64,000 bases of DNA. Source: an uncultured Chloroflexia bacterium (GTDB taxonomy: Bacteria > Chloroflexota > Limnocylindria > Limnocylindrales > CSP1-4). The stretch covers positions 515,560 to 579,559 of the forward strand of contig CAWEHL010000001.1 of assembly GCA_963808895.1 (NCBI GenBank), given 5' to 3'. Positions 16,135-60,673 of this stretch are shown piece by piece; within the stretch, counting starts at the first letter, position 1; each line of letters begins with the position of its first letter. The notes below the pieces were generated by a model that ran no database searches, had not been told where the DNA came from, and saw only the letters and a list, made by a program, of their open reading frames with translations. The position numbers and the translations under genes were made by a program.

Positions 16135-18165
16135 TCACGCCTCGCGTACCGCTGGCACGAACCACCCGACCAGACCGGCTGCTGCGGTGACCAGCCCGAA
16201 GGCCGCGATCACCGTCGTCACCCCGACCGCTTCCGCGAGGACGCCACCGAGGCCGATCGCGAGCGTCATCGCCCCGAACACGAGAGAGAACCGGAATCCG
16301 ACGACCCGCCCGATCAGATTGCCGGGCGTCCGCTCCTGGAAGAGGGTCTGGCTCGGGATGATGAACAACATGTTCGCGATCCCGATCCCGAACGCGATCG
16401 ACAGGACGACGCCGAGGTTGCCGGACAGCGCCATGACCGTCGTCAGCAAGCCGAGCACGACGTAGCCCACGATGATCATCCGGCCCTTCGCGAGACGCAC
16501 GCCGACCAGCCCGATGACGAAGCCGCCGATCAGGTTGCCGGCACCCTGGCTGCCCTCGATGAAGCCGTAGACCGCGCGCCAGTCGAAGCCCTGCCCGCCG
16601 AAGACGTGCTCTGCGAACACCGCGGTCTGGCCGATCAGTACGCCGACGGTCAGCTGCGCCACGACGGCGAGGAGCGTGTTCGCGAGCAGCACAGGCTCGT
16701 TCCGGAGGAACCGCCAGCCCGTCAGGAGTTCCTCGCGGAACCCGGCCGCGTCGGCGTCGGATCGGGCACCCGTCGGCGCCTCGGACTGGACGGGACGCGG
16801 GATCAGCGTGCTGAGCAGCAGTGCCGAGGCGAGGTAGGTCGCCCCGTCGAACCAGAACGCGATCGACACCGCGTCGGCTACAACGGCGACGAACAGCCCG
16901 GCCAGTGGAAAGCCGATGACATCCGCCAAGGTCTCGCCGATCCACAACGCCGAGTTGGCGGTCAGCAGCTCGTCCTCTCGGACGAGGCGAGGCAGGATGG
17001 CGATGCGCGCCGGGCGGAAGAAGATCGAGATCGTCGTCAGCAGGAAGGCAAGCGGATAGACGAGCCAGATGTTGGCCGTGGCGGCGATCGGCATGATGAA
17101 CACGACCGCTGCGCGGAGGATGTCGCTGACGACGAGGACCTCGCGGTGGTCCCAGCGGTCGACGAGCGTCCCGGCGATCGGCCCGAACAGCAGGTTCGGC
17201 AGCGTCGCCGACACGAATACGAGCGCGACGGCGATCGGTGAACCCGTCAGCACGAAGACGATGGCTGCGATGGCGACCTGGTGGACGCGGTCGCCGAAGA
17301 GCGAGATCAGCTGGCCCGACCAGAGGGCGCTGAACGAGCCATTGAGCGCCAGCCGGACATACGGGTGGCGGCGAAGCCTCGCGAGGACGTCCGGTGACAG
17401 TCCGGGGATCGAGATCGGCCGGGTCGGCGGCGCTTCGACGACGAGAGCTGGCGTTGCGCCGGGGCCGGCCAGCCGTTGGCGATCGGCGCCGAGGACCGTC
17501 GGTCGTTGGAGCGATGCCGACTGCTCGAGGCCCGGAGCGAGGCCGGACGGTCGATAGCCGATCGCGCGGTCGGCAGCGAGGCGCCGCCGCAGGTCGGCGT
17601 CCTGCTGCTCCTCGGTCGGCGTCGGGACGCGGACCACGCCGGCGAACAGGAAGAAGGCGAGCCCGAGCCCCAGGAAGAGGTCGCCGAGGGAGTACACGTT
17701 CTGGATGAACGAGATCGGGACGGGGATGACGTCGCCGAGGATCAGCAGTCGCCCGAGGAAGTCCTGTGCGCTCGGGTCGACGATCACGTGGAACGAGCGC
17801 GTGACGTCGGCAGGCGTGAGCCCGGCGTACGCGAGCGCGGGCTCCCAGATCGGCATGTACCCGCCGTTGACCAGGATCACGAGCCCGTTCGAGAGCACGC
17901 CGAGGAAGGCGAGGCTCAGACCGGGGTAGGTCCGGTTGACCCAGAGAGGGATCAGCAGCACGCCAAAGGCGGCGACGAGCAGCGGGAGGCGCAACGCCTC
18001 GACGACGTCGATGCCCGCGTTGAGCGCGGCCTCAGTCGCGAAGCGGAGCACGAGCGCTGCGACGAGCAAGCCCGTCCAGCGAAGCTGGATCTCGGCGAGG
18101 TTGCGAAGGCGCCCGCCGGCGAGAAGCCCGAGGACGAGCCCGAGCAGGATCCCGCCGATCAGCAT
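16135..18165 (-). CDS. DUF5317-like membrane domain fused to an MFS transporter (MFS_3/EntS-like)
   Basis: The N-terminal ~190 aa (GRLRNLAEIQLRW..., NGLVILVNGGYMPIW, DVIPVP) resemble DUF5317. These are followed by about 12 TM MFS spans. Only 4 nt separate it from the upstream HD-GYP stop. Confidence 0.75.
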   Translation of the reverse strand: MLIGGILLGLVLGLLAGGRLRNLAEIQLRWTGLLVAALVLRFATEAALNAGIDVVEALRLPLLVAAFGVLLIPLWVNRTYPGLSLAFLGVLSNGLVILVNGGYMPIWEPALAYAGLTPADVTRSFHVIVDPSAQDFLGRLLILGDVIPVPISFIQNVYSLGDLFLGLGLAFFLFAGVVRVPTPTEEQQDADLRRRLAADRAIGYRPSGLAPGLEQSASLQRPTVLGADRQRLAGPGATPALVVEAPPTRPISIPGLSPDVLARLRRHPYVRLALNGSFSALWSGQLISLFGDRVHQVAIAAIVFVLTGSPIAVALVFVSATLPNLLFGPIAGTLVDRWDHREVLVVSDILRAAVVFIMPIAATANIWLVYPLAFLLTTISIFFRPARIAILPRLVREDELLTANSALWIGETLADVIGFPLAGLFVAVVADAVSIAFWFDGATYLASALLLSTLIPRPVQSEAPTGARSDADAAGFREELLTGWRFLRNEPVLLANTLLAVVAQLTVGVLIGQTAVFAEHVFGGQGFDWRAVYGFIEGSQGAGNLIGGFVIGLVGVRLAKGRMIIVGYVVLGLLTTVMALSGNLGVVLSIAFGIGIANMLFIIPSQTLFQERTPGNLIGRVVGFRFSLVFGAMTLAIGLGGVLAEAVGVTTVIAAFGLVTAAAGLVGWFVPAVREA

Positions 18166-18169
18166 CGCG

Positions 18170-19657
18170 TCATGATGCTGGAGCGGAAGCTCGTGGCGTC
18201 AGGCTTGTTCGGGGGCTTGCGAGGTGGCGGGGAGCGAGCTCGCCGAGACGGTCGCTGGACCAGTGCCGGTCGCCGGCTGGTTCGCTCAGGCGCGTCGCGG
18301 CAGCCTGACCAAGGATCGGGATCGGCCGAGGCTGGACCGTCCGGCCCGGGTCGGCGACACCCTCGACGTGGTGGGTCCTGACGAAGGCGTCGACGACCAC
18401 TGGATCGAACTGGATGCCGGCGAACTTGCGCAGCTCCGCCAGCGCCTGTTCGGCGGTCAGCGGGGTCATCCGGTAGGGGCGGGCGGCCGTCATGGCTTCG
18501 AAGGCATCGGCGACGTGGAGGACCCGGGCGAGCTTGGGGATCTCGTCACCGATCAGCCGGTCGGGGTAGCCGGAGCCGTTGTACCACTCGTGGTGGTGGC
18601 GGATGATCGGCAGCTCGGGGGCGAGCTTGGTGACCGGGGCGATGATCTGCGCACCCAGGACGGGATGCGCGTTCATGATCATCCGCTCCTCCTTGTTCAG
18701 GCGCTCCTGTTTGTTCAGCACCCGGTCCGGGACGCCGATCTTGCCGACGTCGTGGAGCAGGCCGCCCCACTCCAGCGCTTCGAGCTCGGCGTCGTTGACG
18801 TGCATGACCCGCCCGATATCGACCGCGATCTCCTTCACCCGATGGCTGTGCTTGGCCGTGAACGGGTCGCGCTTGTCGACGGCCTCGGCGAGCGCGCCGA
18901 TCGTCTGGGTGAACATCTCGCGCATCTCGATGAAGCGCGCGTAGGCCAGCCGGGTCGAATACAGCGGGACGGCGAATAGGGCGGTCGCCCACCACTGAAC
19001 GGCGTAGACGACCGTCATCAGCCAGGACAGGGGCGCCAGGGCAATCATGCTTCCGAGGATCCCGCGGGTGTCGGCGCGCAAAGCTTCGAGGACCGACTGG
19101 TTCGTTCGGAGGCTTAGCAGTACGAACGCGAGCCCGACGTTCAAGACTTGGAAGACGGCTGCCGCCACCATCGCGGAGGCGAAGTCAGTGAAAGGACCAA
19201 GAGCCGGCGCGAGCTCGAGCCCGGCTTCCCGAACGACTCCCGCGACGATGGCAGGGATTACCAAGCACGCGTGATTGGCAAGAGACCCGTACCAGGGGAT
19301 GCGTCCGCGAAGCTCGCGCAGCTCGGTTGTGCCGATTGCCGCGACCCAACCACCGACCGCGGGGCCTCCGAGCATAAAGGAGGCCATGATCGGTGCCACT
19401 GCTACACCAATCTGCGAGCCGCGTGGCTGTTGCACCGGCCAGGCGGAAGCCAGCAGAGTAATTGCTGTCCACGCGAGGATGCCAAGAGCGACCTCCAACG
19501 GATCGGTTCCCGGAAGGCCAATCTCGACGGCGATCCCCGGTTTGGGCGGAAAAAGAAAAGTCGCGGTCACCAGCGCCAATGCGCCAATGACCACGACAGT
19601 CGCGACGTAAAGCTTGAGAGACTTAGGCATCGTTCTGGGACCAGCCACCTCCCTCAC
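18170..19657 (-). CDS. Membrane-anchored HD-GYP domain protein (c-di-GMP phosphodiesterase family)
   Basis: About 6-7 N-terminal TM spans, then HSHRV, GGLLHDVGKIGVPD and HHHEWYNGSGYPDRL. Alternative starts at GTG 19648 or ATG 19630. Confidence 0.9.
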   Translation of the reverse strand: MREVAGPRTMPKSLKLYVATVVVIGALALVTATFLFPPKPGIAVEIGLPGTDPLEVALGILAWTAITLLASAWPVQQPRGSQIGVAVAPIMASFMLGGPAVGGWVAAIGTTELRELRGRIPWYGSLANHACLVIPAIVAGVVREAGLELAPALGPFTDFASAMVAAAVFQVLNVGLAFVLLSLRTNQSVLEALRADTRGILGSMIALAPLSWLMTVVYAVQWWATALFAVPLYSTRLAYARFIEMREMFTQTIGALAEAVDKRDPFTAKHSHRVKEIAVDIGRVMHVNDAELEALEWGGLLHDVGKIGVPDRVLNKQERLNKEERMIMNAHPVLGAQIIAPVTKLAPELPIIRHHHEWYNGSGYPDRLIGDEIPKLARVLHVADAFEAMTAARPYRMTPLTAEQALAELRKFAGIQFDPVVVDAFVRTHHVEGVADPGRTVQPRPIPILGQAAATRLSEPAGDRHWSSDRLGELAPRHLASPRTSLTPRASAPAS

Positions 19658-19698
19658 TCTACGGCCAGAGCCGAGCAGTGGGTAATGGGCCTTCCGTA

Positions 19699-19782
19699 CT
19701 AGAAGCCCCTAAGAGAAGCCCCTCCAGCGAGCGCGACCATCGCGACGCTCGAAAGCGTGACGATGATCCGCATAAGTCGCAT
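19699..19782 (-). CDS. Candidate 27-aa hydrophobic mini-protein (MRLMRIIVTLSSVAMVALAGGASLRGF)
   Basis: ATG..TAG ORF 41 nt upstream of the HD-GYP gene. Below the ORF-track size cut-off, with no clear SD. Confidence 0.15.
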   Translation of the reverse strand: MRLMRIIVTLSSVAMVALAGGASLRGF

Positions 19783-19798
19783 TTTCACCGGGCGGGTC

Positions 19799-19828
19799 CT
19801 ACCAGCCCTTGACCGATTCGGGAGCCAT
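19799..19828 (-). CDS. Candidate 9-codon leader ORF (MAPESVKGW) with a strong SD
   Basis: GAAGGAGGAA (19834..19843, minus strand), then 5 nt, then ATG. It lies immediately downstream of the terminator hairpin. Confidence 0.2.
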   Translation of the reverse strand: MAPESVKGW

Positions 19829-19861
19829 CGGGCTTCCTCCTTCTCGGCCCTCGTGCTCTGG

Positions 19862-19898
19862 GAACACGAAAACCGACCTGACTTAAAAGTCGGTCGGT
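19862..19898 (-). terminator. Intrinsic terminator/attenuator hairpin with U-rich tail
   Basis: Minus strand ACCGACCGACUUUUAAGUCAGGUCGGU (10 bp with one bulge) followed by UUUCGUGUU. Confidence 0.6.
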
Positions 19899-19978
19899 TG
19901 CACTAGTCGCTCCGTCCCACCCTAAGTGCCCAATTTCAGGTGGGGCATCGCCGCGTCCGAGCGTCTTGACGGTTCTTC

Positions 19979-19996
19979 CTAGTACTGGGGTACTAG
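19979..19996. promoter_or_regulatory. Perfect inverted repeat CTAGTAC-N4-GTACTAG (operator or 5' RNA hairpin)
   Basis: 7-bp arms; lies just downstream of the predicted -10 at 20008..20013. Confidence 0.45.
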
Positions 19997-20007
19997 CAAG
20001 TGGCCGG

Positions 20008-20037
20008 ACTGTAGGGATGCCTAACTAAGCCGGTCAA
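20008..20037 (-). promoter_or_regulatory. Putative promoter TTGACC-N18-TACAGT for the HD-GYP operon leader
   Basis: Minus strand reads gtaTTGACCggcttagttaggcatcccTACAGTcc, 21 nt downstream of the regulator's stop codon. Confidence 0.4.
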
Positions 20038-20057
20038 TACGGAACCTTACCTATCCG

Positions 20058-23000
20058 TCACAGTGCGTCGAGCGGCGGAGGCTCCACTCCTACCTCGTCA
20101 CGCATGACCGCGGCGTAGTGCGCGTATTGCTCGGCCGCGGCGGAATGCGCACCCGTTACCCGGTATAGACGGAGCAGGCAAATCTCGATCTGCTCTGCGG
20201 TCGGATCAGCGTCCAAGGCACGCCGTGCAATCGTGATGCCGCGGTCGTAATGACCTGTAGTGAAGTCGTCAAGGACGGACCGTTCGACGATCTCTAGGTA
20301 CGACGCATGGAGATTGTCTCGATAAGCCGCGGCCCATTCTTCGTACTCAAAATCCAGGGCGAATCTGCCCCGGTACAGGCCCGTAAGGCGGTCGACGTCA
20401 TCCGGAGAGGGCTTAGGGGGCAATTCCCGAATTAGCGCTTTGCAGGCTGCACTTCGACTCGACACTAGTTCGGGGTCGAGCCAGACGACGTCCGAGTCGT
20501 GATGGACGTACCCCGGCGTCAGATCGTCCGAATAGGCCTCCTCAAGGACTCGTCGGAGGAAGTAGATCGTCTGATTGAGTGAGTTCACGGCGACTTCTGG
20601 ATCCAGGTCCGGCCAGAGAGCATCGAGTACTTGGTCTCGCGTCGCCGACATCTGCGGCCGAGTGATAAGGAAGCAGAGCATCGCGAGCACTTTTCTTCGA
20701 ATCGCTGAACCGAGAACGCTTCGGGTCCCAATCTCCACCGTTACCCGGCCTTGATCCTCCACGTGGACCACGTCCGCAAGACGTCTTGCGATTGACCGGC
20801 CGAGGGTCATTGCATCGGGGCGGCGGCGAGAAGACCTAGCGAGCCGCCGCAGACGCGGGATGTCTGAGCGATCTCCGATCGCCTCGAGCATCCGCGCTGC
20901 GGGTATGTTCACGTCGGCCGCCTCCTTGTCGAGAACCAGCCGGAGAGCTGCTTTCCACCGCTCGGGATGGCGGTCTCCCGCTCTGTGCAGCGCGGCTACC
21001 GACCCCTCATAAAGTCGGGGCATGTGTGGGACCAGATCCTCGGCTAGAAAGGTCAGGTGCCAAGGCGCCGCACGTTCTATGAGGCAGATCGTGTCACTCA
21101 GGGTTTCAGGACTTCCCAACGTTGCCAGCAGAAGTTCGCCTAGGCGTCGGGTTGCAGTTGCGCCTTGGGATTTCGCTGCCTGTGTCGCTTTTCGCAGAAG
21201 TACCGGCGCCTGAAGGTCATCGCCGATTACAGCGAGATGGGCGACAGTCATGTCAAAGGACGCATGAGCGCCAATGACACTCGTGAGGCCGGGGACGAAT
21301 CCGCTCAGTGCCTTCTCAGCAGAGACAGCGTCTCGAACGCGGATCGCGATCCGAGCTTTGGCGATAGCCACGGCTCGGCGATCGGCGATTGTCTGGAGTG
21401 AGTCATCGCTAATCCGATCAAGCAGGGCTAGCGCCGTAAGGTGGGATTCATAAGCATCGAAGGCATCCGCGGCCTCAGCAACTGCTTCGTTCGGAACGTA
21501 TCGCGTTGATTCGGACGTCATCCGCGCCGCAAGACCGCGCGCATCGGCATCCATCCCGAGCCGCAACATGATCGCGGCTCTGACCGCACGCGCAGATGAA
21601 TGCTCGATGTCCCCGGTCGTGGACTCGAGGGCATCGATTGCCTCGTTAGCCTCGGCAAGGGCATCCTCGACGCGATCCTGAACAACCGAATTCATCGCCA
21701 AATTGAGCATGGTTACGCCGTAGTAGTGCGATGTAGATGCCCGCTGGACATCAGCCATCGCGCGGAGCCGCCGATTGATCGAGTCGACGTCGGCTTCTGA
21801 GCTTGCCGTCAGGATCGCTGCGCTAACGCCAGCTATAGATATGAGATTTGGGTCAAGGGTGATCCTCTCGAGGTGTCTTGCGAGCTCGAGCGCGCGCTCG
21901 CCGTTTCCGAAGTTGAAGTTCGCGGCCAACAGGTTCAGCAAGGCGTGATCCCGTTGGACGGCATCTGTGACGCCGGAGTCGAGGACCGCCTGGCTGGCAG
22001 CGATCGCGGCCTCGTAGTCGCCCTGCTGCATGTCGACGCGGCTCAGGATCAGGTCGAAGCCGGCCGGCCGGCGCTCGTGACTGATCGGTCCGATGAACGC
22101 CTCGGCGAGCGCGTATTGCCCGTCCCCCATGATCGTCGGGATGGCGCTCGCGACGACGCCGAGCATCGCCTCGGTATCCCCCGCCTCGCGATAGTGATGC
22201 GCGGCGGTCTTCCAGTCGGTACTCGCTGACGCGATCGCGGCTTGTCGATGCAGCGCCGCGACAGCGTCGGGACCATCCATCGACCGAAGGCGCGCCTCGA
22301 GGAAGCCTCGAACGAGCGGGTGGTACCGCTGGTGGGTCCGCGGCGCGCCGGACTGTCGGCTGAGCAAGGTCAGGCGCTCGGCGGCTGTGGTCAGCCGTGC
22401 GACGTCGGAACTTTCGCGACCCGAGACGACCTCGGCCAGTTCAGGCGTGACGACCTGGAGGATCGACGTTTCCATCAGGAATCGCTGCAACTCGTCATCG
22501 AGATCGCCCACGACTTCCTCGGCGAGATAGTCGTAGAGGTCGTGGTCGGCGCCGTTGAGCGTCCTGACGAACCGACGGATCTCGGTCGGCGACCGGTCGC
22601 GCAGCGCGGCTTGGACGAGCTGTAACGACGCGATCCAGCCCTCCGTCCGGACAGCGAGATCCTCCAGCACGTCCGGGTCGATCCGCCGACCGTAGGTCTC
22701 GGTGAACAGCTGGGCAGTCTCCGAAGCATCGAAGCGAAGGTCATCGGTGGCGAGTTCCGCGACTTCGCCGACGGACCGGAGCTTCGACAGCGGGATCGCA
22801 GGCGGTCTTCGGCTCGCGAAGACGACCGTCATGCGCTCCGGAGCGCGGACGACGAGCTCGCGTGCGATGACGCGCGCGTCCGGCGCGTCATCGACGAGGT
22901 GGAAGTCATCGAAGATGAGGACGGCGCCGGAGCCGGCGATGGCCGGCAACTCTTCGAGGAACGTCGAGAGCGCCGCCTCGCGAGTCGTCCCGGCGGTCCC

Positions 23001-23492
23001 GGCATCGGCCAGGACCGCGGCGGTCGCTGGTGCGAAGGCCGGGTCGTGCTCGCGGCCGGCAGCGACCAGGTGATGGAGCATCGTGACCCAGTCGCGGTCG
23101 TCAGGATCGAGTCGGTACCAGAGCGTCCGCATCCGCGTGCGCCGAGCGAAATCGGCGAGGAGTGTCGTCTTGCCATACCCGGCGTCAGCGAGGACGAGGA
23201 CGACGCGACCGTGGATCTTGGCACGCAGCCAGTCCAGCAGACGTGGTCGTTCGAGCGTCTCATCGCGGAGCGCTGGACGCTGGACCTTCGCGATCTGGAT
23301 CGGGTAGCCGCTGACTTCGTCGCTCAGGTGGGCACTCCTGGACGGCGTCACCCCGGCCATATCGTGGGTCCCTACCGGGATCTGCTGAGAGGTGACGAAC
23401 TCCTGCGGAGACCGGCGGGGATCGGGGGGCGCGAACGATATCGACCGCTCGCGCGCCGTGTCAACGGAGCCGAGGGAGGGGCGGTCGGGCAT
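20058..23492 (-). CDS. Large STAND-type regulator: MalT-like ATPase + helical repeats + C-terminal SARP module (OmpR-type wHTH + BTAD)
   Basis: Walker A LADAGYGKTTLL, Walker B VLIFDDFH, MalT-like WIASLQLV. C-terminus RKVLAMLCFLITRP...RDQVLDALWPD...LNQTIYFLRRVL then LYRGRFALDFEYEEWA...LLRLYRVTGAHSAAAEQY. Confidence 0.8.
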   Translation of the reverse strand: MPDRPSLGSVDTARERSISFAPPDPRRSPQEFVTSQQIPVGTHDMAGVTPSRSAHLSDEVSGYPIQIAKVQRPALRDETLERPRLLDWLRAKIHGRVVLVLADAGYGKTTLLADFARRTRMRTLWYRLDPDDRDWVTMLHHLVAAGREHDPAFAPATAAVLADAGTAGTTREAALSTFLEELPAIAGSGAVLIFDDFHLVDDAPDARVIARELVVRAPERMTVVFASRRPPAIPLSKLRSVGEVAELATDDLRFDASETAQLFTETYGRRIDPDVLEDLAVRTEGWIASLQLVQAALRDRSPTEIRRFVRTLNGADHDLYDYLAEEVVGDLDDELQRFLMETSILQVVTPELAEVVSGRESSDVARLTTAAERLTLLSRQSGAPRTHQRYHPLVRGFLEARLRSMDGPDAVAALHRQAAIASASTDWKTAAHHYREAGDTEAMLGVVASAIPTIMGDGQYALAEAFIGPISHERRPAGFDLILSRVDMQQGDYEAAIAASQAVLDSGVTDAVQRDHALLNLLAANFNFGNGERALELARHLERITLDPNLISIAGVSAAILTASSEADVDSINRRLRAMADVQRASTSHYYGVTMLNLAMNSVVQDRVEDALAEANEAIDALESTTGDIEHSSARAVRAAIMLRLGMDADARGLAARMTSESTRYVPNEAVAEAADAFDAYESHLTALALLDRISDDSLQTIADRRAVAIAKARIAIRVRDAVSAEKALSGFVPGLTSVIGAHASFDMTVAHLAVIGDDLQAPVLLRKATQAAKSQGATATRRLGELLLATLGSPETLSDTICLIERAAPWHLTFLAEDLVPHMPRLYEGSVAALHRAGDRHPERWKAALRLVLDKEAADVNIPAARMLEAIGDRSDIPRLRRLARSSRRRPDAMTLGRSIARRLADVVHVEDQGRVTVEIGTRSVLGSAIRRKVLAMLCFLITRPQMSATRDQVLDALWPDLDPEVAVNSLNQTIYFLRRVLEEAYSDDLTPGYVHHDSDVVWLDPELVSSRSAACKALIRELPPKPSPDDVDRLTGLYRGRFALDFEYEEWAAAYRDNLHASYLEIVERSVLDDFTTGHYDRGITIARRALDADPTAEQIEICLLRLYRVTGAHSAAAEQYAHYAAVMRDEVGVEPPPLDAL

Positions 23493-60584: not shown

Positions 60585-60673
60585 GGCCGGTCGATGGTAC
60601 GACCGATCGGCGGAGCGTTCACTGCGGCCGCATCTGTCGTTGACGGTGACCGAGTGCCACCCATAGAGTCGCG

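Follow-up and report, generated by a model that had tools for sequence, protein, structure and literature searches.

Here, we describe a leader RNA that we hold, with considerable confidence, to be a class II cyclic di-guanosine monophosphate (c-di-GMP) riboswitch with a transcription-termination platform, most likely an ON switch. The leader lies on the minus strand upstream of an operon that begins, among its annotated genes, with a membrane-anchored HD-GYP c-di-GMP phosphodiesterase, in a 64,000-nucleotide (nt) stretch of DNA (the window, whose positions are used throughout) from an uncultured soil Limnocylindria bacterium of the phylum Chloroflexota; its metagenome-assembled genome measures 3.5 Mb at 69.6% GC. 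Judged by its sequence, the RNA is an ordinary new member of a known riboswitch class, c-di-GMP-II and not GEMM-I, and it offers a class-wide case in which such a riboswitch would control a c-di-GMP phosphodiesterase, that is, a homeostatic loop, in uncultured soil Chloroflexota. Between the riboswitch and the phosphodiesterase gene lie two mini open reading frames (ORFs), and this peptide cargo, which is new and unexplained, is a more useful lead than the RNA. An earlier reading of the same DNA (the original prediction) had proposed a conditional read-through element at this site, with a cyclic-dinucleotide-responsive leader as its hypothesis. Both proposals are supported, the latter by a match to the Rfam family RF01786 and the former by that match together with a terminator that overlaps the aptamer. 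The parts of the putative switch are as follows:

19884..19967, minus strand: c-di-GMP-II aptamer with P1, P2, P3 and predicted pseudoknot P4 (RF01786)
19890..19903, minus strand: GUGCAACCGACCGA, made up of the P4 3' strand GUGC, the pocket AACCG and the P1 3' strand CCGA (invariant or nearly so in 73 sequences)
19871..19899, minus strand: intrinsic-terminator hairpin T, 12 base pairs (bp) plus a bulge (consensus scan, fold and conservation)
19863..19872, minus strand: U-rich tail UUUUCGUGUU (consensus scan)
19850..19870, minus strand: hairpin H4, formed by the U-tract and a downstream CACGAG (fold and compensatory changes)

The identity of the aptamer comes from a scan of all 4227 Rfam families against 19300..20300 at a permissive threshold (E <= 10). 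The single significant match is RF01786 at 19884..19967 on the minus strand, which is full-length (model positions 1-84 of 84) and reaches 64.1 bits, above the gathering score of 53.5 bits, with an E-value of 8e-14. This match is the sole Rfam hit in the whole window, where no tRNA or transfer-messenger RNA was found either, and the only RF01786 match in the 3.5-Mb host genome. A loose resemblance to GEMM-I that had been remarked on earlier did not hold up: the all-family scan gave no RF01051 match in the leader at E <= 10, and a search of the host's own genome with RF01051 matched at only two sites, both on contig C3. The variant families of the RF01786 clan were also considered as the identity of the element and rejected, the GAG variant model (RF03169) reaching 44.5 bits at the aptamer site, ∼20 bits below the canonical model, and the GCG variant model (RF03170) giving no match there. 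In the c-di-GMP-II fold, the ligand sits between P1 and the pseudoknot P4, where A69, A70 and G73 of the 3' strand recognise it (PMC13715770). We take these nucleotides of PDB entry 3Q3Z to correspond to CAACCG in our leader, a mapping of our own; the AACCG of this segment is invariant in 73 of 73 aligned leaders.

Conservation of the leader was assessed in 80 loci gathered via the HD-GYP protein; the relatives counted here and below share ancestry and are not independent samples. The aptamer signature stands upstream of 74 of the 80 orthologous HD-GYP genes, ∼270-390 nt before the gene, and at least three of the six loci that lack it are cut off. RF01786 is present in 27 of the 36 genomes of our genus sample and above the cut-off in 26 of the 151 genomes of our Chloroflexota sample, so that the family is no rarity in the phylum. 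The relatives retain the -35 and -10 boxes, the 5' hairpin, the aptamer, the terminator, the further hairpin, the Shine-Dalgarno (SD) sequence and both mini-ORFs, and the same order of parts recurs in a second family of Limnocylindria (f3). In other words, the original prediction, which was to fall if the leader were not conserved upstream of orthologous operons, was borne out class-wide. Our literature search returned no paper that pairs c-di-GMP-II with Chloroflexi. Additional aptamers were also seen: in one relative (L103), the aptamer signature GTGCAACCG recurs at position 1246, 1.4 kb upstream of the copy linked to the HD-GYP gene; a divergent class-II-like aptamer is found 12 kb to the left of the window (G000:C1:503459-503544, minus strand; 39.5 bits with the GAG variant model, cut-off 40); and in four relatives (L029-L032) divergent class-II-like aptamers stand directly before genes for secreted proteins, with an SD and no terminator.

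Covariation was sought in 73 distinct leaders aligned with MAFFT, and it was found in P3, in the outer stem of the 5' hairpin (H0) and in H4. The aptamer pairs are formed in 92.9% of alignment cells, compared with ∼30% when partners are slid along the alignment. P3 shows changes on both sides at seven of its eight pairs, with exchanges among CG, UA and GC at two positions. P1 and P2 are paired in 96-99% of cells and nearly invariant, and the two strands of the putative pseudoknot, GCAC and GUGC, match as complements without variation in all 73 leaders, such that pairing is possible and comes without covariation. Some positions of the P3 loop and of J2/3 depart from the Rfam consensus. RNAalifold, given the same 73 leaders, returned P3, the H0 core and H4 alone and placed P1 in a different register because CCGA is duplicated.

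The terminator hairpin has the form AACCGACCGACU-UUUA-AGUC-A-GGUCGGUU, with one bulged A and a folding energy of -16.1 kcal/mol. A consensus scan of 19300..20400 for sigma-70-like promoters and terminators called a terminator-like hairpin at 19895..19871. The hairpin and tail described in the original prediction are thus present, and its length is to be corrected from 10 bp to 12 bp plus the bulged A (19899..19871). Across the 73 loci, terminator cells are paired in 95% of cases with a median hairpin energy of -15 kcal/mol; the terminator is kept in 70, and the tail has at least six U per 10 nt in 62. What makes this hairpin informative is its position. Its 5' arm (19899..19888) contains the pocket nucleotides and the P1 3' strand (19899..19890), and the aptamer and the terminator are therefore mutually exclusive; no separate anti-terminator is needed, and the geometry is that of an ON switch. 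The unconstrained minimum free energy fold (-49.5 kcal/mol) includes the terminator, so that the default state would be termination (OFF), and forcing the aptamer gives -39.5 kcal/mol, a cost of ∼10 kcal/mol before tertiary and ligand energy are counted. The fold of the 171-nt leader, at -72.2 kcal/mol, is better than those of shuffled sequences (z = -3.96). Further downstream, H4 shows compensatory changes in which CGUG/CACG is replaced by CAUG/CAUG, UGUG/CACA or CGCG/CGCG. As its 5' arm is the U-tract, H4 forms only after read-through and has no part in the decision; we infer that it organises the read-through mRNA ahead of the SD.

Putting these parts together, we propose the following sequence of events. 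Transcription from the promoter P1 would begin at ∼20000, and its first product would be the 5' stem-loop, which is probably mRNA-stabilising; the aptamer would be transcribed next. When no ligand is present, AACCGACCGACU would pair with the downstream GUC-A-GGUCGGUU, and the resulting hairpin, followed by UUUUCGUGUU, would cause RNA polymerase to terminate. When c-di-GMP is bound, the same segment would be locked into the pocket (AACCG), the pseudoknot and P1 (CCGA), the terminator would be blocked, and polymerase would read through. ORF1, ORF2, the membrane HD-GYP phosphodiesterase and a DUF5317-MFS gene would then be expressed. Because the operon encodes a membrane HD-GYP phosphodiesterase, high c-di-GMP would induce its own degradation, i.e. 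the logic would be that of negative feedback. Both the direction of switching and the feedback are deductions from the arrangement of the parts.

The mini-ORFs follow the terminator:

19834..19843, minus strand: SD of ORF1, GAAGGAGGAA (conserved, GGAGG-type)
19799..19828, minus strand: mini-ORF1, MAPESVKGW-stop (conserved peptide)
19699..19788, minus strand: ORF2, 29 amino acids, (V/M)KMRLMRIIVTLSSVAMVALAGGASLRGF-stop (coding signature and conservation)

By their sequences, ORF1 and ORF2 are conserved coding genes and not incidental ORFs. A near-perfect SD and a nine-codon ORF after the terminator had been predicted, and both are confirmed at 19843..19799. The GGAGG-type SD stands a few nucleotides (mostly 6-7) before the start of ORF1 in 70 of the 73 loci according to a script, and inspection by eye finds it in the remaining three. 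ORF1 has 9-10 codons, mostly with a GTG start, and the consensus MxP[ED]xxxK[GAPS][WFY]-stop. Its last three residues are kept through differing codons (AAG GGC TGG, AAG CCC TGG, AAG GGC TTC, AAG GGC TAC and others), which argues for selection on the peptide. Among 63 distinct sequences, its stop (19799-19801 in the window) is TAG in 56, TAA in seven and TGA in none, whereas TGA closes 72% of the long ORFs in the host genome. In two relatives (L005 and L020) the ORF1 unit is duplicated in frame as ES.K.W, with codon-diverged copies, and in a third (L084) the peptide unit is triplicated in frame; the repeated units across these three loci read ES.K.W or SSVTKGF.

For ORF2, the hydrophobic 27-codon frame seen earlier is real, and its start moves from ATG 19782 to GTG 19788, as indicated by relatives, to give 29 amino acids; the stop is at 19701..19699. 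The peptide has a basic N-terminus, one hydrophobic helix that is probably membrane-spanning, and the tail AGGASL[RK]GF-stop. The entropies at codon positions 1, 2 and 3 are 0.92, 0.56 and 1.63, and 47% of codon differences are synonymous in frame compared with 5-9% in the other frames. ORF2 was located by its GGAS motif, and the invariance of GGAS is therefore circular. Of 75 loci, 73 contain it; many lineages supply it with a GGAGGA SD of its own, and in the window's lineage it starts 10 nt past the ORF1 stop. Searches for ORF2 gave no Pfam match at E up to 10 and no NCBIfam match at E up to 1. Within the phylum sample ORF2 is restricted to Limnocylindria, and with the window's own genome excluded it occurs within ∼200 nt 3' of an RF01786 match in seven of eight genomes of the class. 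In family f3 the two peptides are MARKVIKGW-stop and ...AGGASFKGW-stop, with the same tail, and ORF1 and ORF2 themselves share a basic-small-aromatic C-terminus; neither peptide matches a known family.

Peptides of this size also accompany the other c-di-GMP riboswitch class in this lineage. The host has two GEMM-I copies, both on contig C3. At one of them (L003 1501-1810; G000:C3:371638-371950), an SD and a tandem pair of ORFs (29 and 33 amino acids), VKARLLRFTWALTLLAAMALTIGAGMRWD-stop and MRVYVRGQSIRLVIALLTLASSAYVIEAGQRWH-stop, each with one hydrophobic stretch, lie behind the GEMM-I aptamer (53.5 bits); a GC-rich hairpin comes after them, and then a gene for a membrane GAF-GGDEF cyclase (L113 571-2763). 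Among genus relatives, 14 of 31 GEMM-I loci (L125-L134, L136-L138 and L140) have a 34-amino-acid ORF, MEVQxSPRxR...LLAAAANFxG-stop, again with one hydrophobic stretch, 11-16 nt past the aptamer, and these constitute another riboswitch-linked micro-protein family. Peptides stand behind both GEMM-I and c-di-GMP-II, and this lineage thus places them repeatedly under c-di-GMP riboswitches. We considered that ORF2 might be homologous to the GEMM-I-linked peptides and settled on resemblance only: a hidden Markov model built from ORF2 alone meets the first L003 peptide at just E = 1.4, and the significant matches are circular, as both peptides are in the model that gave them. The N-terminal membrane domains of the HD-GYP and GGDEF proteins show no detectable similarity. 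Another type of GEMM-I locus (L002, L142-L146) precedes a gene for a secreted Pro/Thr-rich protein that starts MRNIAxADRKDW.

What might these peptides be? Our tentative suggestion, which we consider possible and rather less than probable, is that ORF1 and ORF2 represent a new class of c-di-GMP-riboswitch-controlled micro-peptides, one a free 9-10-mer and the other a 29-amino-acid, predicted membrane-anchored peptide. Their target could be the membrane sensor domain of the HD-GYP protein; alternatively, the DUF5317-MFS protein could handle them, or they could stall termination at stops read by release factor 1 (RF1). In any case, these are two unannotated micro-ORFs conserved over two Limnocylindria families, one of which is flagged as of the same class and not of the same order. 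If they do form a new peptide class, the similar peptides behind GEMM-I riboswitches next to a GGDEF cyclase would join them, and c-di-GMP riboswitches in Limnocylindria would have small membrane peptides as a general layer of output, in parallel with Clostridioides difficile, and if they modulate membrane cyclases or phosphodiesterases, they would make up a hidden second-messenger layer missed by gene callers.

Upstream of the aptamer, the promoter and the start of the transcript are also well conserved:

20038..20056, minus strand: conserved box, GGATAGGTAAGGTTCCGTA / GGATAGGTAAGGTGCCGTA (near-invariant in genus relatives)
20008..20037, minus strand: promoter P1, TTGACC-N18-TACAGT (consensus scan and conservation)
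19975..20000, minus strand: 5'-terminal stem-loop H0 (minimum free energy fold and pair counts)

P1, which had been predicted from the sequence, is the sole sigma-70-like site that the consensus scan found in 19300..20400. TTGAC-N18-20-TANAGT has two matches in the window, where chance would give 0.01, the -35 is kept across 25 genus leaders, and the -10, TA.AGT, is near-invariant over the 73 loci. The only other exact match to the pattern in the window is TTGACG-N18-TAGAGT at 60640-60669 on the plus strand. Transcription from P1 would start at ∼20001..19999. The conserved box on the minus strand abuts the P1 -35, just after the stop of a gene for a 1144-amino-acid STAND/SARP-like regulator (20058..23492), and it may be an UP element, an activator site or the site of the regulator itself. 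The perfect hairpin CUAGUAC-CCCA-GUACUAG predicted at about +5 is present within 19975..20000, where it grows to 11 positions with one mismatch. Its core, GUAC/GUAC, never changes among the 73 leaders, and the loop varies in sequence and length. The outer stem varies with changes on both sides, for example from CUU.C/G.AAG to GCAC/GUGC, and one clade has different complementary arms. Because its outer stem covaries, the hairpin is better read as an RNA stem-loop that opens the transcript than as the DNA operator that had been suggested; a fixed operator is disfavoured by the exchange of the outer arms for another complementary pair and by the variable loop. The invariant GTAC core could still be bound by a protein.

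Downstream of ORF2, the following features complete the operon:

19653..19702, minus strand: spacer elements, namely AGUAC at the ORF2 stop, a CATTACC-like box and TAGAGT at 19661..19656 (73-locus alignment)
18170..19630, minus strand: gene for the membrane-anchored HD-GYP c-di-GMP phosphodiesterase (Pfam HD_5, 1.6e-39)
16135..18165, minus strand: gene for a DUF5317::MFS fusion (Pfam DUF5317, MFS_1 and MFS_3)

The best NCBIfam match of the HD-GYP protein is a c-di-GMP phosphodiesterase family at 140.7 bits, well under the 400-bit cut-off. The 73-locus alignment places its start at ATG 19630 and not at the GTG 19657 of the mechanical ORF list. The DUF5317-MFS gene starts 4 nt past the HD-GYP stop and is therefore assigned to the same operon; our literature search found no papers on DUF5317. 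The GUAC core of the 5' hairpin reappears in the AGUAC at the ORF2 stop. By sequence resemblance, the spacer elements may be a second promoter, P2, for the HD-GYP gene.

Several points weigh against an ON riboswitch that terminates transcription and feeds back on c-di-GMP. P1, P2 and P4 of the aptamer are too invariant to offer covariation support, and its P1 consists of just 4 bp and a few weak pairs, with the outer half of the Rfam P1 mismatched. The ligand is named as c-di-GMP by homology alone, and the transcription start site is inferred rather than measured. The U-tract is interrupted. Three loci (L062, L083 and L089) have the same aptamer and ORFs with no U-tract terminator and with a different hairpin beside the SD; the termination platform is thus not universal, and that of these three loci may be translational. 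Lastly, the conserved TAGAGT, ∼30 nt before the HD-GYP ATG and replaced by TAGACT at the same place in family f3, could free the HD-GYP gene partly from the riboswitch.

The last of these points leads to an alternative that we consider doubtful, although worth attention, in which the riboswitch mainly governs the two mini-ORFs, P2 supplies most of the transcription of the HD-GYP and DUF5317-MFS genes, and the purpose is not primarily phosphodiesterase feedback. TAGAGT and the CATTACC-like box ∼18 nt upstream of it are conserved in 73 loci and resemble the P1 -10 (TA.AGTC), and a GEMM-I riboswitch of the host drives only two small peptides, with a hairpin and the GGDEF gene after them. However, the P2 -35 is weak (3 of 6), and the class-wide order of riboswitch, ORFs and HD-GYP gene suggests co-transcription. 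Additionally, inspection of the stretch between ORF2 and the HD-GYP gene, by eye only, showed no hairpin resembling a terminator, the three hits of the consensus scan being unmapped with respect to 19631..19698. The two readings are also compatible: an active P2 would give basal HD-GYP expression independent of the riboswitch, with induced read-through added to it. It is improbable, in our estimation, that the aptamer switches in the OFF direction, or that translation or mRNA stability, and not termination, is what it controls. Such behaviour would agree with the mostly OFF action of class I c-di-GMP riboswitches (PMC6200980), with the imperfect U-tract, with H4 and the 5' stem-loop as further leader structures, and with the three loci whose platform lies beside the SD. 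Nevertheless, the terminator arm overlaps the pocket and P1 directly with no intervening anti-terminator, which is ON geometry, the ORF1 SD lies 28 nt past the hairpin and is unpaired with the aptamer in any fold, and in C. difficile each of the four class II riboswitches that were tested behaves as an ON switch (PMC6200980).

The ligand and the platform raise two further alternatives. That the c-di-GMP-II fold senses a different ligand, e.g. another cyclic dinucleotide, strikes us as very improbable. A single-nucleotide change does retune the c-di-GMP-II aptamer to cyclic GMP-AMP (cGAMP) isomers (PMC13715770), Rfam has variant families, and some P3-loop and J2/3 positions depart from the consensus; set against this are the invariance of the AACCG that we map to A69, A70 and G73, the ∼20-bit lead of the canonical model over the variant, and a cargo that is itself a c-di-GMP phosphodiesterase. 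Ribosome-mediated attenuation through ORF1 as a leader peptide, with the riboswitch match incidental, is hardly credible. The very short ORF1, its perfect SD and its conserved C-terminal motif would suit a leader peptide, but the start of ORF1 lies 35 nt beyond the U-tract, which means that its translation cannot affect the terminator, and an Rfam E-value of 8e-14 does not look incidental. We have rejected attenuation on the ground that ORF1 lies downstream of the terminator.

A class II riboswitch acting on termination, our preferred reading, has clear counterparts among known systems. Like Cdi-2-1 to Cdi-2-4 of C. difficile (PMC6200980), one of which stands before pilA1, the element here is an RF01786 member in a 5' leader, with ON action shown there and deduced here from the overlap of aptamer and terminator. 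The setting differs: here it is a Limnocylindria soil host of 70% GC with a phosphodiesterase and two mini-ORFs, there adhesins or pili, and the leader here adds a conserved 5' stem-loop and a post-terminator hairpin. Like the 3Q3Z aptamer (PMC13715770), it would have a junction of P1, P2 and P4 bridged by P3, and the CAACCG is present and invariant; unlike it, it has a short P1 (4 bp plus weak pairs) and a few differences in the P3 loop and J2/3, all of this being read from sequence on our side. GEMM-I (RF01051) shares the ligand and the kind of gene associations and has a different fold. For the peptides, the closest parallel is the CD1980.2 family of C. difficile, 58-amino-acid membrane-associated proteins under a class I OFF riboswitch that acts by premature termination, with a link to sporulation, for which the authors report no homologues outside C. 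difficile (PMC13724677, 2026). Both systems combine a c-di-GMP riboswitch, premature termination and unannotated small proteins, membrane-associated there and predicted to be so here. As compared by description, ours differs in having a class II aptamer with predicted ON action and peptides of 9-10 and ∼29 residues that end in a [KR]-small-aromatic C-terminus and precede a phosphodiesterase.

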